The notes: generated from the sequence alone by a model not told the origin. Counted from the stretch's first letter, positions 7,059-35,047 are shown. The stretch is 64,000 nt of DNA from Ardenticatenales bacterium (GCA_020853525.1 JADYYS010000050.1:18672-82671); one strand, 5' to 3'. Numbers and translations are program-made.

Positions 7059-7079
7059 CGACTGAAAGGGCACGGTAAC
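7059..7079. terminator. Hairpin GGGCACGG-taacg-CCGTGCCC between convergent genes. Likely a bidirectional terminator.
   Basis: Perfect 8-bp stem seen in the sequence. Confidence 0.45.
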
Positions 7080-7088
7080 GCCGTGCCC

Positions 7089-10657: not shown

Positions 10658-10685
10658 GGTGCGGGCGGGTTGGGGTTTGGGGGGA

Positions 10686-10707
10686 GGGCAGCCACGGGGG
10701 GCTGCCC
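10686..10707. terminator. Hairpin GGGCAGCC-acgggg-GGCTGCCC between convergent genes.
   Basis: Perfect 8-bp stem seen in the sequence. Confidence 0.45.
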
Positions 10708-13700
10708 CTACTCGCGGGATCCGGGGGTTACTGTCAGCGTGACCCGCTGCCCGTCGCGATCCACGATGACCTTGATCGCCTGTCCGATCTTCAGGGCATC
10801 GAGCGACTTCGTGTAATCGTAGATGTTCTCGACCTTCTGGCCGGCCAGCTCGACGATCACGTCGCCGGCCTTGAGGCCGCCCTGCTCCGCCGGGCCGCCC
10901 TCGGCGACGCCTGACAAGAGGACCCCGGCCACGCCGGTGTCGGCGTAGTCCGGGATCGTGCCGAGGTAGACCCGTCGGCCGCCGCCGGACGGGCTCTGCT
11001 CGGGCGCCTTGGCGGCCACGTAGTCCAGCGGCGCGTCGGCGCGGGCGAGGGAGACCGTGATCCCGCTCATCAGGCGGGCGATCTTGGCCAGCGCATCGTA
11101 ATCCAGGCGCTCCGGCGTGTCGCGGGGCGTGTGGTACTCGGAGTGGGCGCCGGTGAAGGCGGCCAGGATCGGGACGCCCTTCAGGTAGAACGAGGTTGCG
11201 TCCGTCGGCAGGAACGTGTCGTCGGACAGCGTGAGCGGCAGTCCGATGGCGACGTTGCGCTGCTCGATCAGGCGGCGCCAGCCCGTGCTCGAGCCGATGC
11301 CCTGCAGGATCACGCCGTCGTGCAGCCGACCGATCATGTCCATGTTCAGATAGGCCGCCGCCGCCGGGTAGATGGACTCCGCCTTGGGATCGTCGCCATA
11401 TGCCTTCACGAAGTGGCTGGAACCGAGGATCCCGAGCTCCTCCCCCGACCACGCCGCGAAGACGATGTCGCGCCGGGCGTCGGCCAGCCGGCCGTCAGCC
11501 GCCTCGTCGGCCAGGAACTGAGCGATCTCGATCAGGCCCGCGACGCCCGAGGCGTTGTCGTCCGCACCGTAGTGGATCTTGCCCTTCTCTTCGGGCTTGG
11601 CCAGCGAGTCGCCGGCACCGCCGCGACCGAGGTGGTCGACGTGCGCGCCGATGATGACGTGCTCCGCACTCGGCGTCCGGCCGACCTGCAGCCGGCCGAC
11701 GACGTTGCGGCCCTTGCCGGTATCGAACGTCAGCGTGAAGTGCGCGCCGATCTGGTGGCCCGGCAGCGCGAAGCCCGCCACCGCCTCGCCGCCGTCGAGC
11801 GCCGCCTGCGCTGAGGCCAGCGTGTGGCCGCTCTTGCCGAACAGCCCCTCCGCCCACGCATCCGTCACGCTGGCCGCCGCGATGCTCGTTCCGGCCACGG
11901 ACGCATCGAAGCGCAGCTCCACAAGCTGCTCCTTGACGTTGCTCGTCGGACCGCTGACGACGAGCAGGCCGACGGCGCCGCGGTCGCGGGCCTCCATCGC
12001 CTTGTAGCGCAGGGACGCGTAGCGGTTCAGATGCTGCCGTCGCTCGGCATCCACATCCTCGGGCAGGTAGCGCAGGACGACGACCCACTTGCCGTTCACG
12101 TCGAGGTCGCCGTAGCTGTCGTAGGCCGCCTGCTCGCCGTCCTTGGGTGCCACGATGCCGTAGCCGGCAAACGCCACGCCCCCGAAGCCGACCGAGCCCG
12201 TCTTCGAGAACGACAGCGGCCGCCAGTCCGTGTCGACGACCCCTTCCTCCTCCGCCCCCCCCTCGGCCTGGCGCACGAGCATGTTGACGCCGTCGATCCG
12301 GACGCCGGACGTGAAGTCGAACGCCTGGAAGTAGCCGTCGTCGCCGGCCGGCGCGAGGCCGAGCGCTTCGAACGCCTCGGCCACGTACTGCGTGGCCCTG
12401 TGCTCGCCGATCGTGCCGGTCTGCCGACCGTCCATCTCGCCGGCGGCGAGGCGCACGACGTGCCGCTTGGCGTCGGCGGCCGTGATGTCGTCCGTCGTCG
12501 CCGCCATGTCCGGCGGCGCGGCCGGTGCGTCGTCGGCGCCCGCACCGGCCGCCTCCGCGCCGGCGGACGACGACGATGCGGCGCGCGGCGGACTCAGCGC
12601 GAGCAGCGCGCGGGCCTTGGCGTCGTTCCAGTCGGCGACGAAAATCTGGTACTCGCCGCCGGCGGTGCCGCGCTTGTTCGACCACGAGATCGTGGCACCG
12701 CCCGGCGAGAAGACCGGCAGGACGTCCGCATCGGGGGTGAACGTCACCCGCACCGGCTCATGCGCCCCGGCGGCATCGACCATGAACAGCTCGAAGTTGT
12801 CGTAGCCCAGTTTGCTCGACGTGAAGACGATGTAGTCGCCGCTCGGGTGGTAGTACGGTGCCCAACTGAGGGCGCCGAACTCCGTGAGCTGCCGTGCGTC
12901 CGTGCCGTCGGCGTTCATCGTCCAGATCTCGGCCATCGTCCCCTCGGCGTTGAACCGCCGCCAGACGATGCGCCGGCCGTCCGGGCTGAAGAACGGGCCG
13001 CCGTCGTAGCCCTTGACGTCGGTCAGGCGCCGGACGTTGCCCCCGTCGGCATCCATCGTGTAGATGTCCATCATGTAGGCGGGGTCCTGGTCGAACAGCT
13101 TCTGGTCCGCCGCATCCATCGGCTCGCTGTACGCCAGGCGGTTCGAGGCGAACACGATCTGCGACCCGTCGGGCGACAGCGCCCCTTCGGCGTCGTAGCC
13201 GCGGGTGCGGGTAAGGTTGCGGTAGTCGTTGCCGCCGATCGTGACGGCGTAGATCTCGTAATCCTCGTCGTAGTCCCAGCTGTAGCGGCGTGTCTCGCCC
13301 GACGCGCGGAAGTCGAGCTCGGCCTGCATGTCCTTGCGGGCGTCCGGGTCCTCGTGGGTCGAGGCGAAGATCGCCTGCTTGCCGTCGGGTGCGAGCCAGC
13401 CGCACGTCGTCTTGCCCCAGCCGGGCGAGACGCGCCGGCTGTCGCCGGTCTCGAGGTCGAGGACATAGATCTGGTAGAACGGGTTGCCGGGCTCGCGCTC
13501 GCTCTGGAAGATCATCCGCTTGCCGTCGGCGTCGTAGTACCCCTCGCCCGACCGCCGACCCTCGAAGACGAGCTGTCGCACGCCCGTGATCAGATCGGCC
13601 TCGACGTGGCTGGTCGTAACGCCGGTGGACGAGACGGCTTGCGTGGCCGTCAGGTCGTCGTGCGCCCCGAGTGCCGTCGACGTCGTCGCCGCGGTGGTGG

Positions 13701-13896
13701 TCACGCCCGAGGCGGCATCGAGCCCGACGGTCGGCGTGCCGACGCCGGCGGGCGGCTCCGCGGTGGGCCGTGCGCCGCCGCAACCGGCCGCGACGAGCAA
13801 CGCAAGGGCGGCGACGCCGCTGCACGCCGCAGTCGCCATGCCGCGGGCGGCAGCAACGCGCGGTGTTGCGATGGGGGTTCGGGTTCGCTCCGACAT
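10708..13896 (-). CDS. Lipoprotein fusing a TolB-like beta-propeller, a PA domain + M28 zinc aminopeptidase, and a PDZ domain.
   Basis: Probable start MSERTR... with lipobox LLVAAGC. PD40-like repeats read YDADGKRMIFQSE, SPDGSQIVFASNR, SPDGRRIVW and SPGGATISW. The M28 motifs are HVDHLG, GADDNASG and SGEELG. The PDZ domain near the C-terminus reads GGLKAGDVIVELAG. Confidence 0.75.
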   Translation of the reverse strand: MSERTRTPIATPRVAAARGMATAACSGVAALALLVAAGCGGARPTAEPPAGVGTPTVGLDAASGVTTTAATTSTALGAHDDLTATQAVSSTGVTTSHVEADLITGVRQLVFEGRRSGEGYYDADGKRMIFQSEREPGNPFYQIYVLDLETGDSRRVSPGWGKTTCGWLAPDGKQAIFASTHEDPDARKDMQAELDFRASGETRRYSWDYDEDYEIYAVTIGGNDYRNLTRTRGYDAEGALSPDGSQIVFASNRLAYSEPMDAADQKLFDQDPAYMMDIYTMDADGGNVRRLTDVKGYDGGPFFSPDGRRIVWRRFNAEGTMAEIWTMNADGTDARQLTEFGALSWAPYYHPSGDYIVFTSSKLGYDNFELFMVDAAGAHEPVRVTFTPDADVLPVFSPGGATISWSNKRGTAGGEYQIFVADWNDAKARALLALSPPRAASSSSAGAEAAGAGADDAPAAPPDMAATTDDITAADAKRHVVRLAAGEMDGRQTGTIGEHRATQYVAEAFEALGLAPAGDDGYFQAFDFTSGVRIDGVNMLVRQAEGGAEEEGVVDTDWRPLSFSKTGSVGFGGVAFAGYGIVAPKDGEQAAYDSYGDLDVNGKWVVVLRYLPEDVDAERRQHLNRYASLRYKAMEARDRGAVGLLVVSGPTSNVKEQLVELRFDASVAGTSIAAASVTDAWAEGLFGKSGHTLASAQAALDGGEAVAGFALPGHQIGAHFTLTFDTGKGRNVVGRLQVGRTPSAEHVIIGAHVDHLGRGGAGDSLAKPEEKGKIHYGADDNASGVAGLIEIAQFLADEAADGRLADARRDIVFAAWSGEELGILGSSHFVKAYGDDPKAESIYPAAAAYLNMDMIGRLHDGVILQGIGSSTGWRRLIEQRNVAIGLPLTLSDDTFLPTDATSFYLKGVPILAAFTGAHSEYHTPRDTPERLDYDALAKIARLMSGITVSLARADAPLDYVAAKAPEQSPSGGGRRVYLGTIPDYADTGVAGVLLSGVAEGGPAEQGGLKAGDVIVELAGQKVENIYDYTKSLDALKIGQAIKVIVDRDGQRVTLTVTPGSRE

Positions 13897-13999
13897 GACG
13901 GGCTCCTTGGGGGCGACACACGGTCCGATGTCGCCTGTGATGCGCCGGGCGCAGGCGCCAACGCGGTGCCGAACCGTGCGCCGGGCACAGCGCCCGCGC

Positions 14000-16864
14000 T
14001 CATCGACCCAGGTCGGCGATCGTTCGATCGAGGGTTTCGTACTCGCTCGCGACGTCCGCCGCGGATAGTGCCTCACCTACCGGCCGCGTGGCCAGCGCGG
14101 CCAACTCGGCCCCGAAGAGCCGGCGGCGTTTCACCGCCTCGACCTCGTGCGCGCGCTGGCCGGGCCGCCCGGTGTCGCCCTCGGCCGGGGCGGGCTGGGT
14201 GGGCTGCCGATCGTGGCTGAGGTCGACCGCCTTCCGCAACGCGCTGCCCGCCGCCTCCGCGTCGCCCACCCGCCAGGCGATGTAGCCGAGCAGGTAGTGG
14301 ACGATGACGGCCTGCTCGTTCAGCCGACCGGCCTGCCGCAGTGCCTGCTCGGCGGCGGCGATGTCCCCGGCCGCCAGCGCCGTCGCACCGAGCTGCATGA
14401 GCGCCCCGCTCTCCTCAGGGTTGATCGCGACGGCGGTCGCGTAGGCCCGTTCGGCGACCGCGAGGTCGAACAGGTCGCCGGCGTCGGGCGATGCGTGGAT
14501 CGCCCCGATCTGCAGGTGGCCCCGCAGGCTCTGCGGGTTGAGGGCCACGAGCGCCTCGAACGGCTCGAGCGCCGCGGCGTAGTCGCCCAGCTCGCTCAGG
14601 CAGCCGCCGAGCCCGAAGAGGGCATCCTCGTGCAGCGGGTCGAGGGCCAGCGCCTCGCGAAACAGCGCGCTGGCCTTGGCGCAATCGTTCTCGCCCTTCA
14701 TCGCAGCCACGGCGGCGCGCTGCAGCTCCCAGAAGCGGACCCGCGCCTGGGGATCGGACGGGCCGAAGTGGACCGGGGTGCCGCCGGCAAGTTGGGGTAC
14801 GGATTCGCCGCTGGCGATGGCGGTGCCGGAATCCACCGACGTCGGGCCACGGTCATATGCAGTGCCGGCCGTGACGCCATCGACGCCGACGACGGCATTG
14901 CCGCCTGCATCCAGCCTGCGAACCTCCGGCCTGCCCTCGGTCAGCTCGATCCGCTGGTCCGCGGCGACCTCGGCCCACGCCTGCACCTCGCCGCCGGGCC
15001 ACCTGACCTCGACCGTGCTCGACCCGCCCGCCGCCCCGAGCCCGAACTGCGCCTCGGGCGCGTGCTGCGAGAGGTAGGACGAGCCGACGCCGACCTCGCG
15101 GACCTGCCGACGATCGCCGGTGGTCACGATGACCTTGGCACCGATGCCGAAGCGGTTGCGCCGGCCGGCGAGTCGAATGCTGAGCCAGTGGTTCCTCGAG
15201 GCGGCAGGATCGGCCGGATCGGTGCGATCGGCTGGTTCGTCGCGACCTTCGCGACCCCCGTCGTTGCGCAGGAGCGTCGGCGGCGCGCCGTGGTTGGCGA
15301 CGACGATGTCGGGGTCGCCGTCGTGGTCGTAGTCGGCCACGGCGGCGCCGCGCGCGACGTGGGTCTCGGCCCAGGCGTCGCCGCTGGCCGCGCCGACGTC
15401 GAAGAAGCCCTCGCCGTCCGGCCCGCGGTTCCAGAACAGCTGGTTGGCCATCGCGACGAGCTGTGTCGGGTCCGCTTCGTCCTGGAACGTGTGGCCGTTG
15501 GCGACGAACAGGTCTAGCCGCCCGTCGCGGTCGTAGTCCAGGAACGCCGTGCCCCAGCCGACGAAATCGAGCGCGATCTGTCCGACGCCGTATTGATCGG
15601 CCATGTCCGTGAAGCGCATGGGCGGCGCGGCCGGCGCGGTCGCGGGTGCGGCGACGTCGGCCGTGCCGGCCGTCGAATCGGCGACCGCGACATCGGCAGG
15701 CGCCGCATCGGCAGCCGGCGGCGCGGGGAGGTTGCCCCGCAGGTTCACGTACAGCGCGTTCTCCTGGGCGATCCAGTGCGTGACGAAGACGTCCTGGTCG
15801 AGGTCGTTGTCCCAGTCGCCGGTCGCCAGGCCCATCGCGCCGCGCGGATCCGACACCCAGGCCTCGTGGCTGATGTCGGCGAACGTGCCGTCACCGTTGT
15901 TGCGGTAGAGCGCGTTGTCCGAGACATCGTTGGCCACGTACAGGTCCAGCCAGCCGTCGTCGTCGAGGTCGCTCCACGTGGCGGACAGGCTCCGGCCGGT
16001 CGGGTTGTCGACGCCGGCCGCCGCCGCGACCTCGGCGAACGTGCCGTCGCCGTTGTTGTGGTAGAGCAGGTTGCGCTCGGGTTCGAACGAGGACGGGTTC
16101 AGCGACACCGGCGTCAAGGCGCCGTACTGGGCCTCTGTTCGCCCGGCGCCGGCCGGGTCCACGACGTACTGCACGTAGCCGCAGACATACGCATCGAGCG
16201 CGCCGTCCCGGTCGTAGTCCGCCCAGCTCACGCCGGTCCAGAAGCCTTCCGGACCGGCGAAGCCGCCGGCCGCGCCGATATCGCGGAACGTCCCGTCCCC
16301 GTCGTTGCGGTACAGCGCGTTCGTACCGAAGCGCGTGACGGACAGGTCGAGGTCGCCGTCGCCGTCGATGTCGGCCCATGCGGCGCCGAGGCCGAGGTCG
16401 GGGGTCGCCAGGCCGGCACGAGCCGTCACGTCGGCGAACGTGCCGTCGCCTTGATTGCGATAAAGATGACCCGTCGCCGTCGACACCGCGCGCTCGGCCA
16501 CCGAGCGGGAGAGCGCGCCGGCGAAGTTCGGCACGTAGAGGTCGTCCCAGCCGTCGCCGTCGAAATCGCCCCACGCGGCGCCGGGGCCCATGTCCTCGGG
16601 CAGCTGGCTGGAGCGCGGCCCGTCGAAGTGGGGGGCGGTGAGGCCGGCCTCGGCCGCGACGTCCGTGAACCGCACGCGCGCCACATCGTCCGGCAGCGTC
16701 CGGCCGAGCGAGTCCGTGATGCCCGCGACGTCCTCGCCGGGTCGATAGGGCTTGTCGTCGCGACGTGCCACCAGGATGCCGGCGACGGCCAGAGCGACGA
16801 ACGTCGCGCTGCCGCCGAACGTGTAGAGGACGCGGCGGGTCCGGCGTGAGATCGGTCGGCGCAT
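14000..16864 (-). CDS. FG-GAP/VCBS-repeat CRTAC1-family protein with an ASPIC/UnbV domain and C-terminal TPR repeats. An N-terminal TM anchor is present.
   Basis: Repeated motifs DFDGDGWDDLYV, DIDGDGDLDL, DYDRDGALD and DYDHDGDPDIVVAN are FG-GAP-like. The UnbV/ASPIC-like segment reads WLSIRLAGRRNRFGIGAKV...VRWPGGEVQAW. TPR-like helices follow. Confidence 0.75.
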   Translation of the reverse strand: MRRPISRRTRRVLYTFGGSATFVALAVAGILVARRDDKPYRPGEDVAGITDSLGRTLPDDVARVRFTDVAAEAGLTAPHFDGPRSSQLPEDMGPGAAWGDFDGDGWDDLYVPNFAGALSRSVAERAVSTATGHLYRNQGDGTFADVTARAGLATPDLGLGAAWADIDGDGDLDLSVTRFGTNALYRNDGDGTFRDIGAAGGFAGPEGFWTGVSWADYDRDGALDAYVCGYVQYVVDPAGAGRTEAQYGALTPVSLNPSSFEPERNLLYHNNGDGTFAEVAAAAGVDNPTGRSLSATWSDLDDDGWLDLYVANDVSDNALYRNNGDGTFADISHEAWVSDPRGAMGLATGDWDNDLDQDVFVTHWIAQENALYVNLRGNLPAPPAADAAPADVAVADSTAGTADVAAPATAPAAPPMRFTDMADQYGVGQIALDFVGWGTAFLDYDRDGRLDLFVANGHTFQDEADPTQLVAMANQLFWNRGPDGEGFFDVGAASGDAWAETHVARGAAVADYDHDGDPDIVVANHGAPPTLLRNDGGREGRDEPADRTDPADPAASRNHWLSIRLAGRRNRFGIGAKVIVTTGDRRQVREVGVGSSYLSQHAPEAQFGLGAAGGSSTVEVRWPGGEVQAWAEVAADQRIELTEGRPEVRRLDAGGNAVVGVDGVTAGTAYDRGPTSVDSGTAIASGESVPQLAGGTPVHFGPSDPQARVRFWELQRAAVAAMKGENDCAKASALFREALALDPLHEDALFGLGGCLSELGDYAAALEPFEALVALNPQSLRGHLQIGAIHASPDAGDLFDLAVAERAYATAVAINPEESGALMQLGATALAAGDIAAAEQALRQAGRLNEQAVIVHYLLGYIAWRVGDAEAAGSALRKAVDLSHDRQPTQPAPAEGDTGRPGQRAHEVEAVKRRRLFGAELAALATRPVGEALSAADVASEYETLDRTIADLGR

Positions 16865-22800: not shown

Positions 22801-23785
22801 GGGCGACGTCGTACGCGCGGTCGTCGACGGCACGGCGCTCGAGGCCACGTTGCCCGCGCTGACGTTCAAGGTCGACCGGGCCGCCCGCCGCGGCACGGGC
22901 AGCGCGCCGCCGGGCGCCATCGTCTCGATCGAGCACCCGGCCGGCAGTTGCGCCTCCCGCGACAGCGCCGATCCCATCGAGCGGACATCGTTTGCCTATG
23001 CCAGCCAGGCCACCGCCGACGGTCGCGGCGCGTACGATGCCTCGTTGCCGCTCTTGCCGCGCGCGCTCGAATCCGCGCGTCCGCCCGCGTTCGAAGCCGC
23101 CCTCCTCGACGCCGCCGGCCATCGCCACTTCCGCCTCAGCCGGGCGCTGCGCATCACGGCCCTCGTCGACACGGATCGCGTCACCGGGGAGGCCGATGCC
23201 GGCCGCAGCGTCGCCGTGACGCTCGCCCGCCCCGGCGGCCTCACCGCCCGCGGCACCGCCGTCGCCGACGCCCTCGGGCGCTTCACGGCGACGCTCGCCG
23301 CCGATGGCGGCGGTGCCGCGGTACGCCTGCAGGCAGGCGACTCCGTCGCGGCCACCGCGGACGGCGAGGCCCGCGGCCTGACCGTCCCGCCGCTGGCCGT
23401 CGACTGGCACCCCGAGCGGGGCCTCGACGGCCGGACGGATGCCGGCGCGACCATCCACGTCCGGTTCATCCTGCCGCGCGGGCTTGTCTCGGCGCAGGCG
23501 ACGGACTTCACGTTTGCGCTGACCGCCGACGCCACGGGCCGGTTCTCGAGCGCCGCCGCCGCAGCGCGCGGCCACTGGACCGCGGCTGACGTCCGGCGGG
23601 TCGAGGTCTGGCGGTCGTTCGAAGAGGACGATCGGGTGATGGTGGCGTTCGACACCGAGCGCGGCCCGGCACCGCCCACGCCGCCGGGCAGGCCGACGCC
23701 TGTCGCGACGGCGCGGCCACCGGACGGCGTGGACGGCGGGCGGGCGCACCTGCCGTGGGCGGGGCGAGAGGCGGACATGCCCTGA
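19817..23785 (+). CDS. Very large (~1320 aa) secreted protein built of repeated ~100-aa beta-sandwich (Ig-like) modules. Function unknown.
   Basis: Signal-like N-terminus MLRSRQAALVALALTAVAVGTALAAS. Recurring module ends TLTVPALAARW, LEATLPALTFKV, GLTVPPLAVDW and ALTVPPTAAHVD. No catalytic motif recognised. The start position is uncertain. Confidence 0.5.
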   Translation: MLRSRQAALVALALTAVAVGTALAASDPSRRSPDARVPDARAVHAAQGVRSPVTVTLDSGTVEWRAAPYAEVGAFWYSGESFYFNAFGSADSTGRVVLTWSDPTPERTDNDRPFEELDRLVLRAGTAVDVGAVYTITLPALDAEVDAPGDRIALRGPPGATLAVRVRRALDRDVLALTGTDVVRRDAGDVGGALAGQRSSGEPGRSVWAGNVTAGGDGATEVRLAGTVDVQPGDIVEVQRVWAGDTFVLRRTAFQLVTGDGLRQPVAYGRPGERVAVDVQSGGRRRGCATTIGRAGWRSWSCGEPIAAGDRITVSHSGGLLPLVRTTATVPQLAFRPGAGSKPADLTGPPNARLRFVEVDALGGPSGFDVVLDAQGQATLPAGRPARGSRYAYAWRDVSGITWGRGGFVPQIRLVLGEPRLRGVWPADPVTVTVSGHGGAVIGRWSRARTSSGSARSIPLYDPRSGPQEPLHRLAPGERIEVVVGGDEPVVWTVPDLALQFDADRNQLAGRLPLGTRGTLTVLEAIDGDPDPLQPLDDLADSRFVHRATLSLSPATDGAFAVRVSDLRTPDGFRLPAHRLVLYAVTAERADGNAVMAVVARPWLRIDAQSVSAEGFGPSGQTVDIEVADAAGRPVVRRRTDDAVATAIDRPVWSIPLVDAVGAPTALRPGDRVTVTIGASRSALTVPPTAAHVDLPGRSVRGRTAPNASLTIAFFGEAWGERRWVVRAGPDGTFETPLPAGVPLRHNDRGEILGRVGPHVVTAQIVVPSMIADLSVGRIWGRGAAGAPVDVTVLRQGRAVASGRRLVDDGLTFDVDPRDAGGRHVRPLAGDVVVQRVDGRPAMTLTVPALAARWVQADGAIAGTSPPGSAVDIQRPAGFELTGAGWDVGYADVAATGAFTASARHRFGLTTGLSALVQARVPDGVIAWRWVATPVLNVPHGGDSVCGQAMPWAVVHATATLGDGRTAEGSGGADPNGRFRIPLRRADGRPVVLAAGDVVRAVVDGTALEATLPALTFKVDRAARRGTGSAPPGAIVSIEHPAGSCASRDSADPIERTSFAYASQATADGRGAYDASLPLLPRALESARPPAFEAALLDAAGHRHFRLSRALRITALVDTDRVTGEADAGRSVAVTLARPGGLTARGTAVADALGRFTATLAADGGGAAVRLQAGDSVAATADGEARGLTVPPLAVDWHPERGLDGRTDAGATIHVRFILPRGLVSAQATDFTFALTADATGRFSSAAAAARGHWTAADVRRVEVWRSFEEDDRVMVAFDTERGPAPPTPPGRPTPVATARPPDGVDGGRAHLPWAGREADMP

Positions 23786-23883
23786 GGCCGCTCGCTCCCC
23801 CGGCAAGTCCCGCCGCCGCTCCGATCGTCACACCGCCCCCCACCCGCTATCGTTACGCCCTCGCCCATTCCGAGGAGCCGACG

Positions 23884-25005
23884 ATGCCCGTACTTCCGCC
23901 CGCCGGCCGCCCCGCCGTGCTCGCGCTCGTCCTTGGCGCCGCACTTTCGGCCGTCGCCTGCACCGATCGCGCGACGCGGACGCCCGCCCCGCCGACCGCC
24001 ACCCCGTCGCCCGTCGCGACCGCGACGCCGATCGCCTCGGCGACGGCCACCGCCACGGCCACGCCGCCGCCGCACGAGCTGTCCATCGAGTTCCTGCGCC
24101 GCAAGGCCCATCCCGGCGGCCCGCTGACCGTCGTGCGCGAGCTCGGGGCGAAGGGGAACTACACCCAGTCCGTCGTCCGCTACCCGTCGGACGGCCTGGC
24201 GATCCAGGCACTGTTGACCGTGCCGCAGGGCGATCCGCCGCCGACGGGCTGGCCGGCCGTCATCTTCAACCACGGCTACATCCCACCGGCGCAGTACCGC
24301 ACGACGGAGCGCTACGTCGCCTATGTCGACGCGTTCGCCCGCAACGGCTACATCGTCCTCAAGAGCGATTACCGCGGCCACGGTGAGAGCGAGGGCGATC
24401 CGTCCGGCGGCTACGGCAACCAGGGATACACGTCCGATGTCCTGAACGGGCTCGCATCGCTCCGCGCCCGGCCCGATGTCGACCCCGACCGGATCGGGAT
24501 GTGGGGTCACTCGATGGGCGGCTGGATCACGCTGCGGAGCATGGTGACGACGGACACCGTCAAGGCCGGTGTGATCTGGGCCGGCGTCGTGGCCAGCTAC
24601 CCTGATCTCCTGACGCGCTGGCGCCGTCCCGGCGCCCCGACGCAGCCGGCCGCGACCACCGCCGGCGGCCTGAGCGCGTCGTCCTCCGCCGGCCGCCGCT
24701 GGCGCACGGACCTCGTCGCGCGCTTCGGCGAGCCGGAGGCGAACCCCGCCGCGTGGGCACCCCTGTCGGCGAACACCTACCTCGCCGACCTGTCCGGCCC
24801 GATCGAACTCCACCACGGCACGGCGGACAGCAGCGTGCCGTTCGGCTTCTCGGAGACGCTCGTCGAAGAGATCGAGGCCGTCGGCGGCAACGTGGCGCTG
24901 TTCACCTACCCGGGCGACGACCACAACATCAGCGCGAACCTGTCGACGGCGCTGGCGCGGTCGGTGGCGTTCTTCGATGCACACGTGAAGGACATCGCGC
25001 CGTAG
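23884..25005 (+). CDS. Alpha/beta-hydrolase lipoprotein (prolyl-oligopeptidase / dienelactone-hydrolase-like).
   Basis: Lipobox ALSAVAC. Nucleophile elbow GMWGHSMGGW. A Thr/Pro/Ala-rich linker follows the lipobox. Confidence 0.7.
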   Translation: MPVLPPAGRPAVLALVLGAALSAVACTDRATRTPAPPTATPSPVATATPIASATATATATPPPHELSIEFLRRKAHPGGPLTVVRELGAKGNYTQSVVRYPSDGLAIQALLTVPQGDPPPTGWPAVIFNHGYIPPAQYRTTERYVAYVDAFARNGYIVLKSDYRGHGESEGDPSGGYGNQGYTSDVLNGLASLRARPDVDPDRIGMWGHSMGGWITLRSMVTTDTVKAGVIWAGVVASYPDLLTRWRRPGAPTQPAATTAGGLSASSSAGRRWRTDLVARFGEPEANPAAWAPLSANTYLADLSGPIELHHGTADSSVPFGFSETLVEEIEAVGGNVALFTYPGDDHNISANLSTALARSVAFFDAHVKDIAP

Positions 25006-25040
25006 TCGCGGACTCCCCCCATCGGCCCCCCCGGCCGACA

Positions 25041-25093
25041 TTGACACATCGATCGTGGTCGATATAATTGCCGCATCGATCGTCATCGATGTG
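25041..25093. promoter_or_regulatory. Consensus sigma70-type promoter TTGACA (25041-25046), 16-nt spacer, TATAAT (25063-25068), embedded in the inverted repeat CACATCGATCG ... CGATCGTCATCGATGTG. Candidate ArsR-family operator, suggesting autoregulation.
   Basis: Seen in the sequence. The promoter hexamers and spacing are perfect, and the palindrome arms flank and overlap them. Confidence 0.5.
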
Positions 25094-25481
25094 TTGTCTG
25101 GAGTCCGCCGTGACCGCAACCCAACCCACCGCCCTCTTGTTCGCCAAGGTCCTCGCCGACGACACGCGGCAGCGGATCATGACGTGCTGCTGCTGCACGT
25201 GGCGCTCGGTCGGTGACATCGTCGAGGCGCTGGGCGGCGACGTGGGGCAGCCGACGGTCTCGCATCACCTGGCGGTGCTGCGGGACGCGGGGCTGGTGCG
25301 GCTGCGGCGGGACGGTCGGCAGACGTTCTACGCGTTGGACCAGGAGCGCGTGGCGAGCTGCTGCGGTCAGGTGCTGACGTCGTTCGCGCCGCAGACCACG
25401 GCCGCGGCGGCGGTCGTCGCGTGCTGCGAGGACTGCGGCCCGGCGTCGACATCGGCGCCGATCGCGTTGGTCACGCCGTGA
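25089..25481 (+). CDS. ArsR/SmtB-family metal-sensing transcriptional repressor, unusually Cys-rich.
   Basis: Winged-HTH LADDTRQRIM...SVGDIVEALGGDVGQPTVSHHLAVLRDAGLV. It has a CCCC cluster (MTCCCCTW) and a C-terminal CC...CC.DC cluster. The start was chosen downstream of the promoter. The ORF-track start at 25068 would overlap the -10 hexamer. Confidence 0.7.
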   Translation: MCCLESAVTATQPTALLFAKVLADDTRQRIMTCCCCTWRSVGDIVEALGGDVGQPTVSHHLAVLRDAGLVRLRRDGRQTFYALDQERVASCCGQVLTSFAPQTTAAAAVVACCEDCGPASTSAPIALVTP

Positions 25482-25500
25482 CCGAGCGGGCGGGTTTTTT
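25470..25500. terminator. GC-rich stem followed by a T7 run (GGGCGGGTTTTTTTGG). Probable intrinsic terminator after the arsR-like gene.
   Basis: Seen in the sequence. U-tracts are rare in this GC-rich DNA. Confidence 0.4.
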
Positions 25501-25613
25501 TGGGCCAATGCATCGATGGCGATCGATTGGTTTGCCGCGGCGAAGACGTCGCCGCGGCAGCGCACCGAGCCGGACCGCGCTGTGCGTCCGGCCAACAGAT
25601 CCATGGAGGATCG

Positions 25614-25779
25614 CATGAACGATGTGACGGGTTCGCAGATCGAGGATCGGATGACGGCCGGTTGTTGCGACGGTGGGTCGGGGTGCTGCGGCGGCGGTTG
25701 TTGCGGCGGCGGCGGCTGCAGCTGCTGCTGCAGCGACGATTGCGGTTGCGATCCGACGGGCGACACCACGCCCCAGTAA
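25614..25779 (+). CDS. 54-aa Cys/Gly-rich peptide, metallothionein-like: MNDVTGSQIEDRMTAGCCDGGSGCCGGGCCGGGGCSCCCSDDCGCDPTGDTTPQ.
   Basis: It has a strong Shine-Dalgarno (GGAGGA, 4 nt before the ATG), 16 Cys in 54 residues, and sits immediately downstream of the ArsR-type sensor. A second ATCGAT-containing palindrome lies upstream of it at 25520-25545. Low-complexity frame artefacts (poly-Ala in the other frames) cannot be excluded. Confidence 0.45.
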
Positions 25780-25800
25780 GCCGGCACGCCGGTCGGTCGG

Positions 25801-26035
25801 GCCCAACAACCGGTCCCCCCCGGCCCGCACGCAAACGATGCCCGGTAGGGGCAGGTCCCCGTGCCTGCCCCGTAGGCCGTCCCATCACGCACCCCATTCC
25901 AAACCCAACAAGACGCGACGCGTGTCGTGTGGGCCGGGGATGGGGCGGGGTGGGGGGCCTACGGGGCAGGCACGGGGACCTGCCCCTACCGGGCATCGTT
26001 TGCGTGTCGGCCGGGGGTGTCGGTTGTTGGGCGCC
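25801..26035. repeat. Giant imperfect palindrome (~235 bp). Arms 25801-25877 and 25955-26035 carry a perfect 51-bp inverted repeat core. The 77-bp centre is itself quasi-palindromic around ACGCGT.
   Basis: Verified by reverse-complementing. 25826-25877 equals the reverse complement of 25955-26005 exactly. Confidence 0.85.
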
Positions 26036-26177
26036 ATTGCATTCATCGATCAAATGTTCTATTCTCCGATGCGTATAATCCCGATCGATCACCTGCTCGA
26101 GCGCCTGTCGCACGACACCCCGTCCGCCCCCACGCCGCCGACCGCCCGGTCGGCATCGCCCGCGCCCGGAGACCGCC

Positions 26178-28442
26178 ATGACGATCGCCCAGCCTTTGCT
26201 CGACCTCGACGGAACGCGCGATGAGGCGAACGGGCCGGCTGCCGATAGCCATCGCGTGGCCGTCGGCCAGACCGTCGACATCGCCGAGACCGCCGCACTG
26301 CCGCCGAATGCAAAGCCTGCGCCGCGCGCGCGCAAGACGGAAGCCGACGCGGCCGACTACGGCGCATCCTCCATCACCGAGCTTGGCTTCCCCGAGGCCA
26401 TCCAGAAGCGGCCCGGGATGTACATCGGCAGCCGCAGCAACCTCGGGCACCTGCTCGTCGAGATCGTCGACAACAGCATCGACGAGGCGATGGGCGGGCA
26501 CTGCTCGCGGATCGACGTCACGCTGAACGCGGACGGCAGCGCGACGGTGATCGACGACGGGCGCGGCGTGCCGACGGCGATCCATCCGGACAGCGGGCTC
26601 TCGGCGCTGGAGATGGCCTTCACGAAGCTCCATACCGGCGGCAAGTTCAACCAGGACAGCTACAGCACGTCCGGCGGGCTGCACGGCGTCGGGATCAAGG
26701 CGACGAACGCGCTGTCGGCGTGGCTCGTCGTCGAGGTCCGACGGGACGGCGTGAAGTATCGGCAGCGGTACGAGCACGGGTACGTGAAGTCGCCGGTCGA
26801 GATCCTCGACCCGAAGAGCGGCAAGGCCGTCGCGGTCGTCGGTTCGGCGGACGCGGCGGCGGCGACGAAGAAGGCGGCCGATCGCAAGCTCGGCACCGGG
26901 ACGACGATCACGTTCCTGCCGTCGAGCGAGTTCCTCGAGGTCACGCGCTTCGACTTCAGCGCGATCGCCCATCGGCTGCGGATCGCGGCCTATCTCATCC
27001 CGGGCCTCACGCTCACCCTCACGGACCTGCGCGGGCCGGAGACGCGCCGCCGCGAGTACCACGAAGAGGGAGGGTTGCCGGGCTACGTCGGCCACCTGAA
27101 CGAGAGCCGCAAGGTCATCCACGCCGCGCCGATTCGGATCCACGGCAACACCGACTCGGGCGTCGCCGTCGACCTGGCGTTCCAGTACCACACGGACGAC
27201 GACGAGGAGATCCTCAGCTTCGTCAACACGATTCCGACACCCGACGGCGGGACGCACGTCTCGGGCTTCCGCGCCGCGTTGACGAAGGCGATCAACGTCT
27301 TCGGCCAGGAGAAGAAGCTGATCAAGGGCGACGACGACATCACCGGCCGCGACACGACCGCAGGATTGACCGTCGCGCTATCCGTCATGATGCCCGAGCC
27401 CGAGTTCACGTCGCAGACGAAGACCCAGCTCGGCACGCGCGACGTCCACGGTCAGGTGCTCAGCTTGGCATACGAGCAACTCCTCGAGATCTTCCGGTCC
27501 GACTCGGCCCTCGGCCGCAAGATGGTCGATCGCTGTCTGGCCGCGTCCCGCGCCCGCGAAGCCGCCGCCAAGGCACGCAGCCTGGTCATGCGCAAGAGCA
27601 TCCTGGAGGCCGTGGACAGCGGCCTGCCCGGCAAGCTGGCGGACGTCGCCAAGAACGCCGACACGGCGCGGACAGTGCTCTACATCGTCGAGGGCGACTC
27701 GGCCGGCGGCAGCTGCAAGCAGGCGCGCAACAACAGGTTTCACGCGATCCTGCCGCTGCGCGGGAAGATCCTGAATACCGAGCGCGCCCGCCTGAACCGC
27801 GCCCTGTCCAACGCCGAGATCAAGTCGATCGTCTCGGCCGTCGGCGGCGGGATCGCGCGCGACTTCCGGGTCGAGGACATGCGCTACGCCGGCATCGCGA
27901 TCTTCGTCGACGCCGACGTGGACGGCCTGCACATCATGACGCTGCTGCTGACGCTCTTCTGGCGCTTCATGCGCCCCATGATCGACGCCGGCCGGCTGTA
28001 CGTGGCCCGCGCGCCGCTCTACCAGGTGAGCAAGGGCAAGCGCAGCGAGTACGCCTACACGGAGTGGGAGCGCGATCAGGTGATCGCCCGCTTCGGCAAG
28101 CAGGGCACGAGCGTGCAGCGCTACAAGGGCCTGGGCGAGATGAACCCGAGCCAGCTGAAGGAAACGGTCTTCAGCCTGCCCGAGACCGAGGGCGGCCCGA
28201 CGCCGTTCGCCAACCGCAACCTCTTCCGCGTGACCGTCGAGGACGCCCACCAGGCGAACCAGATGGTCCAGCTCTGGATGGGCGCGCACGTCGGCCCCCG
28301 CAAAGCGCGCCTGATGGCGATCTGGGACGGCGAAGCGACGTTCGACGAGCTGGCGGAGGACCTCGTCGCCGGGAGCGTCGACGACGTCGAGTTCACCGGG
28401 TTCGCCGGGTTCGCCGAGTCCGGCGACGACGAGGAAGGCTGA
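26178..28442 (+). CDS. gyrB: Type IIA topoisomerase ATPase subunit (GyrB/ParE family) with a ~55-aa non-conserved N-terminal extension.
   Basis: Motifs RPGMYIGS, LVEIVDNSIDEAMGGHC, GGLHGVG, the Toprim element EGDSAGGS, the QTK loop and KGLGEMNP are present. A TATAAT hexamer at 26073 lies upstream. The gyrB/parE distinction is not certain. Confidence 0.8.
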   Translation: MTIAQPLLDLDGTRDEANGPAADSHRVAVGQTVDIAETAALPPNAKPAPRARKTEADAADYGASSITELGFPEAIQKRPGMYIGSRSNLGHLLVEIVDNSIDEAMGGHCSRIDVTLNADGSATVIDDGRGVPTAIHPDSGLSALEMAFTKLHTGGKFNQDSYSTSGGLHGVGIKATNALSAWLVVEVRRDGVKYRQRYEHGYVKSPVEILDPKSGKAVAVVGSADAAAATKKAADRKLGTGTTITFLPSSEFLEVTRFDFSAIAHRLRIAAYLIPGLTLTLTDLRGPETRRREYHEEGGLPGYVGHLNESRKVIHAAPIRIHGNTDSGVAVDLAFQYHTDDDEEILSFVNTIPTPDGGTHVSGFRAALTKAINVFGQEKKLIKGDDDITGRDTTAGLTVALSVMMPEPEFTSQTKTQLGTRDVHGQVLSLAYEQLLEIFRSDSALGRKMVDRCLAASRAREAAAKARSLVMRKSILEAVDSGLPGKLADVAKNADTARTVLYIVEGDSAGGSCKQARNNRFHAILPLRGKILNTERARLNRALSNAEIKSIVSAVGGGIARDFRVEDMRYAGIAIFVDADVDGLHIMTLLLTLFWRFMRPMIDAGRLYVARAPLYQVSKGKRSEYAYTEWERDQVIARFGKQGTSVQRYKGLGEMNPSQLKETVFSLPETEGGPTPFANRNLFRVTVEDAHQANQMVQLWMGAHVGPRKARLMAIWDGEATFDELAEDLVAGSVDDVEFTGFAGFAESGDDEEG

Positions 28443-28445
28443 TCG

Positions 28446-30938
<2,493 letters not shown>

Positions 30939-31597: not shown

Positions 31598-31819
31598 ATG
31601 GACGCGCAGTTCACCGCCGTCTTCCAGCAGGTCCCCGAGGGCTACATCGCCTGGGTCGATGAGCTGCCGGGGGCGAACACCCAGCGCAACACTCTCGAGG
31701 AGGCCCGCGAAAACCTCGCCGAGGCCGTGATGCTCGTGTTGGAGGCCAACCGCATGCTGGCTGAGGAAGACCTGGCCAGCGCTGACGTGATCCGCGAGCT
31801 GTTGCTGCTGACGGCGTGA
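31598..31819 (+). CDS. HicB-like (UPF0150 family) antitoxin-domain protein with no adjacent HicA.
   Basis: MDAQFTAVFQQVPEGYIAWVDELPGANTQRNTLEEARENLAEAVMLVLEAN matches the HicB/UPF0150 pattern. It starts 4 nt after the higA stop. Confidence 0.55.
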   Translation: MDAQFTAVFQQVPEGYIAWVDELPGANTQRNTLEEARENLAEAVMLVLEANRMLAEEDLASADVIRELLLLTA

Positions 31820-31848
31820 CAGTTCAATGACCTGAACCTGGAGGATCG

Positions 31849-33270
31849 ATGCGAGGATTTGTGCAAACGCCTCCAAATGTCGTGGACCAGATGGTGGCCA
31901 TGCTCTTCCGCGACAGGCGACCTTCTCCCAGTGACCGCCTTCTTGATCCCGGCTGCGGCCCAGGCGCCTTCATCGCTGGCGTGCTGCGCTGGTGCGCGCG
32001 TGAAGGTGTGGAGCCACCGCAGATTGTCGGAATCGAACTCGATCCCGCGCATGTAACGTCGGCACGGGAACGATTCCGGAACGATCCGTGCGTGTGCATT
32101 CGAGGGGCCGACTTCTTGGATTGCCAGAATCAGGATCGATACGACTTCATCATCGGGAATCCGCCCTACGTATCAATCCTGCAGCTCTCCGAACAGGAAC
32201 GGGCTTACTACAAGTCGTCGTTTGTAACCGCAACTGGCAGGTTCGACCTCTACATGCTGTTCTTCGAGCAGGCAATCCGCCTCCTCGATGCAAGAGGCAC
32301 TCTCGTGCTCGTAACACCAGAAAAGTATGCGTATGTTGCCTCTGCGGGCCGTCTCCGCCAGAAGTTGGCCGGGCTCCATGTGACCGACTTCGTGCTCCTC
32401 GATGAGAGCGCGTTTGGCTCTCTTACAACATATCCTGCCATAACGCGCGTTCGCCACTCCCCGCCTGGGCCGTGCAGGATCACAACACGTGGGGGTGCTG
32501 AACGGATCGTAAACCTGCCAAGTGACGGCGCTTCATGGCGCTTCCATCTTCGCGATGGACGACCGTCGTTGCTCACGCCCAGCGGTGAGACGCTGCGGGA
32601 GTTCTGCGATCGCATAAGTTGCGGTATCGCGACAGGTGCGGATCGGGTGTTTGTAATGCCGTCAGATCACGTGCCTGCGCGCCTCGAAAAGTTTGCCTGG
32701 CCGACGATCTCGGGTCGTCAACTCACGATGGCTCCAGAACGCATCGCGACGACCTCGTCGATTCTCGTTCCATACGATAGGCAGGGAGATCTCCTGCCGT
32801 TGGCGGAACTGGAAGAGCTGGGAGAATATCTGCGCACACCCGCGATCGCCCTTCGCCTTCGCGCTCGATCCTGCGTCGCGCGTAAGCCCTGGTATTCCTT
32901 TCACGACTCCGTACCCATGCGTGATCTGGTCCGGCCCAAACTCATCTGCAAGGACATTTGTGCCGAGGCATCTTTCTGGATCGATTCCAAGGGAGAGATC
33001 ATACCCGGGCATTCCGCCTACTACCTCGTGCCGCGTGTCGCCGCGCTGCTCGAGCCCATGGCACACTACCTTAATAGCAGCCTAGTTCGTTCTTGGCTGC
33101 GAGATCACAGCCAGCGTGCGGCAAATGGCTTTCTTCGGAATCAGAGTACAATTCTTAAGCAAGTGCCCATTATATCCGAAGTTGCAAGAGATTGGCGACA
33201 ATTATTAGGTGAACACTCTCTCTCGGCTGATGGTGATAGCTTGGCCGTGCACCTGGAGCCGCTGCCGTGA
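31849..33270 (+). CDS. Gamma-class N6-adenine DNA methyltransferase (TaqI / Eco57I-like). Lies in lower-GC DNA.
   Basis: Motif I LLDPGCGPGAFI. Motif IV FIIGNPPYV. MRGFVQTPPNVVDQMV at the start, with a GGAGGA Shine-Dalgarno. Local GC is roughly 50% against ~70% in the flanks. Confidence 0.8.
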   Translation: MRGFVQTPPNVVDQMVAMLFRDRRPSPSDRLLDPGCGPGAFIAGVLRWCAREGVEPPQIVGIELDPAHVTSARERFRNDPCVCIRGADFLDCQNQDRYDFIIGNPPYVSILQLSEQERAYYKSSFVTATGRFDLYMLFFEQAIRLLDARGTLVLVTPEKYAYVASAGRLRQKLAGLHVTDFVLLDESAFGSLTTYPAITRVRHSPPGPCRITTRGGAERIVNLPSDGASWRFHLRDGRPSLLTPSGETLREFCDRISCGIATGADRVFVMPSDHVPARLEKFAWPTISGRQLTMAPERIATTSSILVPYDRQGDLLPLAELEELGEYLRTPAIALRLRARSCVARKPWYSFHDSVPMRDLVRPKLICKDICAEASFWIDSKGEIIPGHSAYYLVPRVAALLEPMAHYLNSSLVRSWLRDHSQRAANGFLRNQSTILKQVPIISEVARDWRQLLGEHSLSADGDSLAVHLEPLP

Positions 33271-34049
33271 CAACGCCGATAGATCAAGTGATTGCAGAAA
33301 TGACAAGGGTGCGCTTTCATAATCATCGGAGCGAAGCGCACTCAGACATCATTAGTCATGGTATCTGGAATCTTCTCTTGGACCGTTGCCCGGCGATTAG
33401 TACGGACTTTGAGCGAGACAAGATCGACTTTTGGACGAATGTGGAGGTGCCGGGACTGACTCACCGTATTGATATGATGGTTTGCGAGGTTGGCCCGCAT
33501 CCAAGCACTCCATCGCTTGAACGCGCAAGAATCTGCTTAGAGAACAAGACCGTCATAACAGCGCATGGCAAGAATCGTCGCAATCGTCACAGTGACCTCT
33601 CCGACTTTTATCGCCTAGTACAGAGCACGACGCCGGAGGCTATCGTCCTTGGAACCGTTTTGATCGGAACGGCGGAGCAATATCTGAATATTCCGGACAG
33701 CGTGCGACCTGCATGCAAGCTGCTAGATATCAACTTTGAAACAGACGTGCTTCCGCGACTCTCTTCTGGCGATGAGTCGCTATGGGATCAATTCCGAACT
33801 CTAGTTGGACAGAATCGATCATCTGATGCTGCAAAGACCGTCGAGCTTATGCGATCACTTCCGACCAGACCGCGAGGGTTTACACACGAGACGGGGTTTG
33901 ATTATCTCTGGATTGTGCCCCTGCGAATTGACAATGTATCCGCGCCCCGCGTCGTCAGGCAAAACGAGTTTGCCATCGACATCGACGGCGAGTTCGAGGA
34001 AATGATCGATACGATTTGTCGTAGATACACTTCCCGCTGGTCACCCTAG
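33267..34049 (+). CDS. Putative restriction endonuclease partner (candidate PD-(D/E)xK: HRIDMMVCEV ... CLENK). No family recognised.
   Basis: Its GTG start overlaps the MTase TGA stop (GTGA). It shares the low GC of the MTase. The only internal argument is the D...E-x-K spacing. Confidence 0.4.
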   Translation: MTTPIDQVIAEMTRVRFHNHRSEAHSDIISHGIWNLLLDRCPAISTDFERDKIDFWTNVEVPGLTHRIDMMVCEVGPHPSTPSLERARICLENKTVITAHGKNRRNRHSDLSDFYRLVQSTTPEAIVLGTVLIGTAEQYLNIPDSVRPACKLLDINFETDVLPRLSSGDESLWDQFRTLVGQNRSSDAAKTVELMRSLPTRPRGFTHETGFDYLWIVPLRIDNVSAPRVVRQNEFAIDIDGEFEEMIDTICRRYTSRWSP

Positions 34050-34246
34050 ATGATGCCCGGAGCTTCGTTGTCGCGAGTACGCGATTGATCCTTGAATGGT
34101 TCCTGTTCTACCGCAAAGCAGCCGCTCTTGCACTAAGATGTGTCTAGCGCGGCGGCGTCGATCGCCATTTCAGCCAACGTCCGCGAAATCGCAAGACTAC
34201 AAGTATGATTGCCGCCGATTCCATATGTGGACGCACCCCAAACCAC

Positions 34247-35047
34247 CTATGGCCCTGCGTCAAACCACGCATGTAATCGCGCCATTCCTTCTGTGGAATC
34301 GGCCCCGGCGTCCGCCTTCTTGGGTGTCATCGGAGTCGGAGTCGGCGTCGGCCACGCCCTTACCGTCGCCGTCGGTGACGCCGGTGGCCGCGACCCCGTC
34401 ATCGTCGCCGTCCCCGCCGGAACGTCAACCGTCGCCGTCGCCCCCACCCCCGGTGTCCCCTCGTCCTCCCACCAGTACGAGCTCATTCCCCCGATGCAGT
34501 CATCGCACGTCGCGGCCGGGAAGAGTTCCATGCTGCGGTTGATCCGGATCGGTCCGCTGCCGGCCCGTCCGGCCCGCAAGACACCGTCGCCGCGCAGCTC
34601 GATGCGCCAGTAACAGATCCAAGGCGGGCCTGCCGGGAAGATGTCCTCGAGGAGCGACCAGTCCTCCGGAAATCGCTCGTCGTGCTCGGCTGCCGTCATG
34701 CGCAGGGCGGCGACGACCTCGGTGTAGAGATCATGATCGCCCAACCGTCCGTGCAATCCCATCATCGCCGACTGGAGCCGCGCGTGCTCCACCGCGTCAA
34801 AGCGGCTCATCCCACCGCGGCACACCGCCAGCGGATGGCCTTTGCTGAGAAGCGGCAAGTAGATGTGCCCAGGCGCCGCGTGCGCCGCATGCGCCGCCGA
34901 ACCGAGGAGCGGCTGCAGTTCGTCAGGTCGAACCAGCACACGCGCCGACGATCTGCCCAAGATCGTGCCCGCGGCCACGCAGATGGCCAGGCATGCGGCA
35001 CCGACGAGCCTCGCCAAGGCACTTGAACGACGGTTGTGGATCACGGG
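34247..35047 (-). CDS. Hypothetical membrane-anchored protein with a Thr/Pro-rich C-terminal tail. No family recognised.
   Basis: Long ORF on the minus strand. The hydrophobic segment ARLVGAACLAICVAAGTILG is the only recognisable feature. The start position is uncertain. Confidence 0.3.
   Translation of the reverse strand, partial: PVIHNRRSSALARLVGAACLAICVAAGTILGRSSARVLVRPDELQPLLGSAAHAAHAAPGHIYLPLLSKGHPLAVCRGGMSRFDAVEHARLQSAMMGLHGRLGDHDLYTEVVAALRMTAAEHDERFPEDWSLLEDIFPAGPPWICYWRIELRGDGVLRAGRAGSGPIRINRSMELFPAATCDDCIGGMSSYWWEDEGTPGVGATATVDVPAGTATMTGSRPPASPTATVRAWPTPTPTPMTPKKADAGADSTEGMARLHAWFDAGP

Follow-up and report, generated by a model that had tools for sequence, protein, structure and literature searches.

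Background

REPINs are defined as inverted REPs that, together with the spacer between them, form a hairpin, and the doublet is their replicating unit (PMC3116915). In the Pseudomonas GI REPINs, for example, the starts of the two conserved 16-mers are separated by 71 bp (PMC3116915). In E. coli, a Y1 transposase recognizes REPs and cleaves them as single-stranded DNA, and clustered inverted REPs have been described as binding sites for several proteins (PMC3333891, PMC3479197, PMC8266576). REPs headed by GTAG have also been reported in Chloroflexi and occur as head-to-head dimers with conserved spacers of 20–100 bp; their GTAG heads supply TAG stop codons, some dimers are nested in longer palindromes (A. 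variabilis GTAG-15 and H. neapolitanus CGTC-1), and the commonest REP position is between co-directional operons (PMC3733652). Among the transposases, those of RAYT group 4 are reported to be common in Caldilineae (PMC5581495). What is known of REPIN biology comes almost entirely from work on Proteobacteria.

Here we analyzed a 235-bp palindrome (25801–26035) in a 64-kb stretch of DNA, hereafter the window, whose proteins have their named homologues in Chloroflexota (Anaerolineae, Ardenticatenales, and Caldilineaceae). We consider it most likely that the palindrome is a REPIN-type element, that is, two GTAG-headed REP hairpins placed head-to-head around a 91-nt spacer and set within a further 35-nt inverted repeat. 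Like the Pseudomonas REPINs (PMC3116915), it consists of inverted REPs and a spacer that form one long hairpin, the doublet recurs, the location is extragenic, presence varies between close relatives, and the family is linked to Y1/HUH transposases. It differs from them in its host, an uncultured Chloroflexota bacterium (Ardenticatenales-like) and not a gammaproteobacterium, and in that its unit is longer (163 bp), lies inside the extra 35-nt inverted repeat that extends the palindrome to 235 bp, and is known here from two loci. With the GTAG superfamily (Di Nocera et al. 2013, PMC3733652) it shares the GTAG at one end of a GC-rich stem-loop, the head-to-head dimer with GTAG outside, and the supply of TAG stops (at 10708 and 7089 in the window), whereas the outer palindrome was found here at one locus only. 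The E. coli REP/BIME elements acted on by TnpA-REP (PMC3333891, PMC3479197, PMC8266576) are likewise imperfect palindromes with a 5′ GTAG, but they have no sequence similarity to the present family, which is known from sequence, and BIME linkers are short and of defined types. The subterminal hairpins of IS200/IS605 elements are also substrates of Y1 HUH transposases and are likewise not accompanied by target-site duplications; here, however, no transposase gene lies between the hairpins, which are identical inverted copies and not distinct left and right ends. Our data document a GTAG-REP/REPIN-like family in uncultured Chloroflexota that occurs widely in environmental metagenomes and has a link to RAYT-like transposases, and whose REP consensus (GTAGGGGCA..CCCCGTG..TGCCCC) was absent from the supplements of PMC3733652 and from a full-text literature search.

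Structure of the palindrome

Repeat search and fold prediction both bore out the giant palindrome described in the initial annotation, with pairing that spans 25801–26035 (235 bp). The repeat search of the window returned inverted arms at 25817–25878 and 25956–26017 (62 nt, 97% complementary, 77 nt apart) and additional outer arms at 25801–25820 and 26013–26032, and a separate exact-match scan gave an exact core of 51 nt (25828–25878 and 25956–26006). The perfect arms had been placed earlier at 25826–25877 and 25955–26005; their exact 51-nt complementarity held, but the coordinates were off by 1–2 nt. The hexamer ACGCGT (25917–25922) lies on the symmetry axis, and the center was partly self-complementary in both the RNA and the DNA folds, in agreement with its description as quasi-palindromic around this hexamer. 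The RNA fold of the palindrome reached −229.5 kcal/mol compared to −132 ± 5 kcal/mol for shuffled sequences (z = −18.3), and the DNA fold reached −131 compared to −66 ± 3 kcal/mol (z = −19.3), with no shuffle as low in either case. One strand is predicted to fold into a single hairpin with a stem of ~100 bp, which matches the ~100-bp RNA hairpin that had been proposed.

No second long inverted repeat of comparable quality was found within the 64-kb window. Outside it, the full palindrome was also recovered from two other assemblies, L129 (JGI) and L130 (ENA), with 97.5% identity and small asymmetric differences. Rfam returned no family at gathering score (only sub-threshold matches to microRNA hairpins, 27.7 bits versus a gathering score of 77), BLASTN of plasmids and phages gave no match, and there was no change of GC skew near 25.9 kb and hence no sign of a replication origin or terminus.

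A REP doublet at the core

The core of the palindrome is a REP doublet (25836–25998, 163 bp) made of CGATGCCCG, a REP, the spacer, an inverted REP, and CGGGCATCG; this REPIN-like unit is what the palindrome has in common with a second locus (see below), and in L129 and L130, too, the perfect arms start at CGATG. The left REP (25845–25871, plus strand, 27 nt) and the right REP (25963–25989, minus strand), an exact inverted copy of the left, each scored 47 bits (E = 7e-9) with R1, a covariance model built from the REP family. Each unit reads GTAG-GGGCAGG-TCCCCGTG-CCTGCCC, in which a GTAG head is followed by a 7–8 bp stem (GGGCAGG/CCTGCCC) closed by the 8-nt loop TCCCCGTG. With GTAG at 25845–25848 and its complement CTAC at 25986–25989, the two inverted units form a head-to-head homodimer with GTAG facing outward on either side of the 91-nt spacer (25872–25962). 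The ends of the spacer (GTAGGCC and GGCCTAC) still pair, its left half is C-rich and its right half G-rich, and its left part (GTCCCATCACGC.CCCCA...AACAAG) is conserved in the second-locus contig L079. A G-quadruplex-type motif (25931–25977, GGGCCGGGGATGGGGCGGGGTGGGGGG...) extends out of this G-rich half of the spacer into the right REP.

Beyond the shared unit, the palindrome is extended by a locus-specific outer left arm (25801–25835) and by an outer right arm (25999–26035), which adjoins a conserved promoter-like block and is identical in L129 and L130. These outer arms pair at ~31 of 35 positions, with a local alignment score of 43 compared to 13.7 ± 2.6 for shuffles. The strain differences of L129 and of a Logan contig (L144) are confined to the left outer arm and are uncompensated, which argues against selection for pairing in the outer arms. 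We had also considered the whole 235 bp as the mobile unit, and dropped this idea because the flanks of the L079 doublet are neither palindromic nor homologous to the outer arms of the window. Possible origins of the outer arms include an older palindrome that served as insertion target, a longer subfamily of the element, and templated extension.

A second copy of the doublet and its absence from relatives

Window positions 25836–25998 matched positions 7377–7541 of contig L079 (JGI Ga0138256_10000716) with 85% identity over 166 alignment columns, including both arms and the spacer (BLASTN). The L079 copy has perfect arms of 43 nt and a spacer of 79 nt, and the same second-locus doublet is carried by L133 (the ENA twin of L079) and by L134. 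It lies in a 243-nt gap between two convergent genes, one for a trans-aconitate-methyltransferase-like protein and the other for a 356-aa protein, so that the doublet, spacer included, recurs as a unit in a different gene context. The second-locus contigs come from JGI 3300012533 and ENA ERZ27275391, samples that also yielded the topoisomerase locus (L129 and L130), where the B subunit is 96% identical to that of the window and where L130 has 96.6% nucleotide identity to the window over 15.5 kb. The shared samples, the matching G+C content (0.706), and the parallel divergence from relatives suggest that both doublet loci belong to one species. Two loci with a doublet of this exact subfamily were seen.

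At both sites, the element is absent from the orthologous position in relatives. Upstream of the topoisomerase operon, the palindrome was found only in assemblies of the same species (L130, with ~96–97% nucleotide identity across the locus they share, and L129, with the 96%-identical B subunit). When we checked for its conservation upstream of the gyrB-like gene in more distant genomes, it was missing from the two relatives whose B subunits are 87% (L131, GCA_964651245.1) and 79% (L132) identical to that of the window. In L131, the hydrolase gene is followed by the ArsR gene, and a gap of 145 nt separates the latter from the topoisomerase gene, with neither the palindrome nor the Cys-rich ORF that precedes it in the window and with no REP found by R1; in L132, where the upstream genes differ, R1 likewise found no REP. 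Because L131 lacks the palindrome together with the Cys-rich ORF, it is conceivable that a single larger insertion or deletion carried the two together at this locus. We also looked for an empty site through homologues of the Cys-rich ORF, which gave one cluster, and both of its short contigs run into the palindrome.

The second site is closer to a clean empty site, whereas the topoisomerase site is confounded by the missing Cys-rich ORF. In L141 and L142, whose methyltransferase is 89% identical, the doublet is absent and the convergent genes lie 9 nt apart; in L141, R1 gave only two weak overlapping matches (16.3 bits, E = 0.13), both on a mini-palindrome. This doublet-less site (L141 6825–6841, and likewise in L142) is a 17-nt perfect mini-palindrome, GTAGGGGCAGCCCCTAC, which is identical to the doublet's outermost 10 + 7 nt and in which TAG and CTA act as stop codons for the two convergent genes. 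It may be the remnant of an excision or deletion, or a preferred target.

The REP family in metagenomes and in the window

A scan of metagenomes with the pattern GTAGGGGCANNNCCCCGTGNNTGCCCC matched at least 120 contigs or loci. Among the matches listed, pairing occurs in 253 of 258 cells at the four stem positions that the pattern does not constrain, compared to 159.5 ± 7 after shuffling. A curated alignment of 52 variants contains 60 both-sided changes with 98% pairing; since this set was selected for pairing, the covariation counts carry more weight than the 98% figure. GTAG is invariant in the family alignment (A3), a result to be read with the requirement for GTAG in the search pattern itself. 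REP neighbors no more than 200 nt apart, again among the matches listed, comprise 71 pairs with GTAG outside, 22 with GTAG inside, and 11 in tandem, so that head-to-head is the main layout compared to tail-to-tail and tandem arrangements. A scan of genome contigs gave eight single matches, and only one of these, in an Acidobacteriota metagenome-assembled genome (L006), proved related: it is a nearly identical 33-nt unit in two abutting inverted copies, the stems of which differ by compensatory paired changes (CAGG/CCTG versus CAAC/GTTG).

Within the 64-kb window, R1 found three strong REP units and one weak unit, all of them extragenic, in that they follow stop codons or overlap a stop codon only. 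Besides the two units of the palindrome, the strong ones include a single REP of the same family (GTAGGGGCAGCCCCCCGTGGCTGCCCT; 10685–10711, minus strand, 46.6 bits, E = 8.5e-9), whose GTAG head provides the TAG stop of an M28/PD40/PDZ peptidase gene (10708–14076, minus strand; Pfam). The weak unit is a GTAG-headed hairpin (GTAGGGGCACGG-CGTTA-CCGTGCCC; 7067–7092, minus strand, 21.1 bits, E = 0.009) whose head likewise forms the TAG stop of a SpoU-type methylase gene (7089–8162, minus strand), and it may be a diverged REP. The single REP at 10685–10711 was also considered as half of a REPIN; this was rejected on the similarity between its flank and the spacer, which is at chance level (17 versus 15.5 ± 2.4).

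Link to RAYT-like transposases

The REP family is linked to RAYT-like transposases: among the loci listed, 13 metagenome loci gave clear RAYT-like tblastn matches, with REP copies in or beside the gene, and two others (L014 and L097) gave only short RAYT-like matches of 44–48 aa. The encoded proteins contain the motifs YDY...YFVT, MPNH(I/V)HGII (the HUH motif), LPDVVHRFKT, and NYYEHI with the catalytic tyrosine. Two representative proteins matched Pfam Y1_Tnp above its cut-off, and their best NCBIfam match was NF047646 (“REP-associated tyrosine transposase”) with 56–71 bits, below the 80-bit cut-off. These genes encode IS200-like Y1 transposases. No target-site duplication flanks the 163-bp unit in the window (GCAAA / TTTGC) or in L079 (GATGG / GGTTG), nor the 235-bp palindrome (GGTCGG / GCCATT), which is in keeping with Y1 transposition and speaks against a MITE of the DDE type. 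In the 64-kb window and in the fetched loci of this species, tblastn found no RAYT gene, and the sole RAYT matches in the window were to the REP-encoded peptide itself. By inference, the doublet would have been mobilized by a RAYT in this particular genome too.

Many of the RAYT-like coding sequences themselves contain in-frame REP copies, from one to about ten of them (L016, L018, L025, L051, L066, L090, L095, L098, L106, and L126). These copies follow the HUH motif MPNHIHGII and precede the LPDVVHRFKT helix; their translations read VGAGPRACP, GQPRGVAPT, or GQARGPAPT, and the reading frame stays open through them to the catalytic NYYEHI. Examples are L098 (aa 159–378) and L126 (aa 46–361), both on the plus strand in frame 0. 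We found no description of in-frame REPs inside RAYT genes in the literature searched, and a literature search for REP-encoded peptides returned nothing relevant. Together with the palindromic extension beyond the mobile unit, they may be of interest to mobile-element specialists.

Gene context

The palindrome lies between two operons on the plus strand. Upstream, an alpha/beta hydrolase gene (23755–25005) is followed by a unit (25068–25779, plus strand) that comprises an ArsR/SmtB-type regulator (25068–25481, plus strand; Pfam HTH_5, NCBIfam NF033788) and an 87-aa Cys-rich ORF (25516–25779, plus strand), and the order of these two is the same in L129, L130, L144, and L145. Downstream, the genes for type IIA topoisomerase subunit B (26178–28442, plus strand; Pfam) and subunit A (28446–30938, plus strand; Pfam, passing NCBIfam NF004044 only) are followed by HigB/HigA, and the palindrome ends 143 nt before the ATG of subunit B. 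Exact-sequence look-ups of the GyrB-like, GyrA-like, and ArsR proteins of the window found none on record.

The initial annotation had read the downstream genes as a gyrB-like/gyrA-like operon. That they encode the B and A subunits of a type IIA topoisomerase was confirmed, and it is their identity as gyrase that is uncertain: both subunits score below the NCBIfam gyrB and gyrA equivalog cut-offs, and their relatives carry the names “type IIA topoisomerase” or “topoisomerase IV”, which therefore makes the premise of a classical gyrase promoter uncertain. Instead of the main gyrase, these genes may specify an enzyme that is topoisomerase IV-like or an atypical type IIA topoisomerase. The A subunit has no GyrA-box at the start of its C-terminal domain, and the only similar motif, QGRGGQG, is found at residue 754, near the C-terminus.

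Between the palindrome and the B subunit gene lies the promoter-like block (26033–26087, plus strand), with TTGCAT, 17 nt, and TATTCT, followed by GCGTATAATCCCG; it was read by eye and is below the threshold of the promoter scan. The block is kept in L131 as GCC(A/C)TTG(C/A)AT...CAAATGTTCTAT(T/G)CT...GCGTATAATCCCG (alignment A1, columns ~599–650).

Origin of the palindrome and alternative explanations

We favor the REPIN-type reading with an incidental position because the element matches the REPIN definition and the head-to-head GTAG dimers already described, and has no target-site duplication. The initial annotation had mentioned the remnant of a mobile element only as a fallback, and this was essentially right, as the palindrome is built of members of a dispersed REP family that has a link to RAYT-like transposases. 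It had put forward a supercoiling-sensing or insulating role instead. In the form considered here, a supercoiling-sensing cruciform or a gyrase-binding element, whether evolved as such or in secondary use, would regulate or insulate the type IIA topoisomerase operon. E. coli BIMEs bind DNA gyrase, the palindrome ends ~40 nt upstream of the conserved TATAAT and adjoins the conserved promoter-like block, and its 51-nt perfect arms, with the very stable DNA fold that is predicted for them, would make the extrusion of a cruciform physically plausible. However, the palindrome is absent from the 79% relative and also from the 87% relative, in which the promoter-like block is kept, the same 163-bp unit lies between unrelated convergent genes with no promoter nearby, strain differences affect one arm only and are uncompensated, and the operon is not clearly that of a gyrase, its only GyrA-box-like motif being misplaced. 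We therefore regard such a role as very unlikely. Equally improbable is a later co-option, in which the inserted REP doublet and its 35-nt outer arms, located ~15 nt before the operon's putative −35 element, would couple its expression or insulation to supercoiling through a cruciform or topoisomerase binding. In a related reading, the outer arms could stem from template-switch extension of the palindrome, and if this is true, larger palindromes would grow from REPINs as their seeds. Evolution in situ of a terminator or RNA-stabilizing 3′ hairpin serving the ArsR/Cys-rich operon is somewhat easier to envisage, as the palindrome begins 22 nt past the stop of the Cys-rich ORF, has an RNA fold of −229.5 kcal/mol, and sits between two co-directional operons, the commonest REP position (PMC3733652), but we still consider it unlikely: no U-tract follows the hairpin (3′ flank GCCATTGCATTC), a scan of 24900–26400 found no terminator-like site on the plus strand, a stem of ~100 bp is far above terminator size, and arms that are copies of a dispersed family, in a unit that recurs elsewhere, did not evolve in place. 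What stands of the earlier proposal of a terminator for the upstream metal locus is that the palindrome may work as one, as a side effect of REPIN insertion.

Two further readings concern what kind of sequence the palindrome is. Its size (163–235 bp) and long inverted ends are MITE-like in the general sense (PMC3733652, PMC3184786), but we hold it highly improbable that it is a classical MITE, that is, an insertion sequence of the DDE type that has terminal inverted repeats and an internal deletion: neither the unit nor the palindrome has a direct target-site duplication, in the window or in L079, the arms hold GTAG-headed hairpins typical of Y1 transposase substrates, and the REP family co-occurs with Y1_Tnp genes and not with DDE transposases. 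Long inverted repeats also often break or mis-join short-read assemblies, and Logan contigs do stop within copies of the element: the left arm of the palindrome is present in L144, which breaks off within the left REP, L135 stops in the left REP of the doublet at the second locus, and L145 stops just inside the palindrome, ~20 nt into its outer left arm. That the palindrome is an artefact of assembly or amplification (a chimeric inverted junction) is nonetheless exceedingly improbable, given that two further independent assemblies hold the full element with its non-palindromic center and asymmetric point differences and that unique flanks on both sides are collinear with relatives. From the breaks in these three contigs, it appears that elements of this kind fragment assemblies and so are under-counted in metagenome-assembled genomes.

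Returning to the REPIN-type reading, the element would be non-autonomous, with the doublet as the copied unit. Mechanistically, the substrate would be the REP hairpin in single-stranded form, with GTAG at its 5′ end, which a Y1/HUH RAYT supplied in trans would cut and rejoin. The element would have been inserted, or have been retained, in the gap that separates the ArsR/Cys-rich operon from the topoisomerase operon, and it is probably by coincidence that it lies upstream of the gyrB-like gene. Most plausibly, it would act there only as a passive 3′-end hairpin of the upstream transcript that blocks read-through or stabilizes the mRNA. A striking palindrome is thus explained as a mobile REP doublet, and its interpretation as a gyrase regulator loses its appeal.

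Other features near the palindrome

At its C-terminus, the Cys-rich ORF has a tail rich in Cys and Gly (CCDGGSGCCGGGCCGGGGCSCCCSDDCGCD), and its product may be metallothionein-like; the ORF matched no Pfam or NCBIfam family and had one homologous cluster among 5.8 billion protein clusters. Just before the ArsR gene, a perfect sigma-70 consensus (TTGACA, 16 nt, TATAAT; 25041–25068) is overlapped by a 20-nt inverted repeat (25044–25063 and 25075–25094) that looks like an autoregulated operator. Given this promoter and operator (25041–25094), the annotated TTG start of the ArsR gene at 25068 is probably too far upstream. Beyond the topoisomerase operon, an island of low G+C content (31711–34338; 52–58% versus ~69%) is absent from the 96.6%-identical L130. 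It contains a gene for an Eco57I/TaqI-type N6 DNA methylase (31849–33270) and an unannotated 260-aa ORF (33267–34049), and is probably a restriction-modification insertion beside the HigBA pair.
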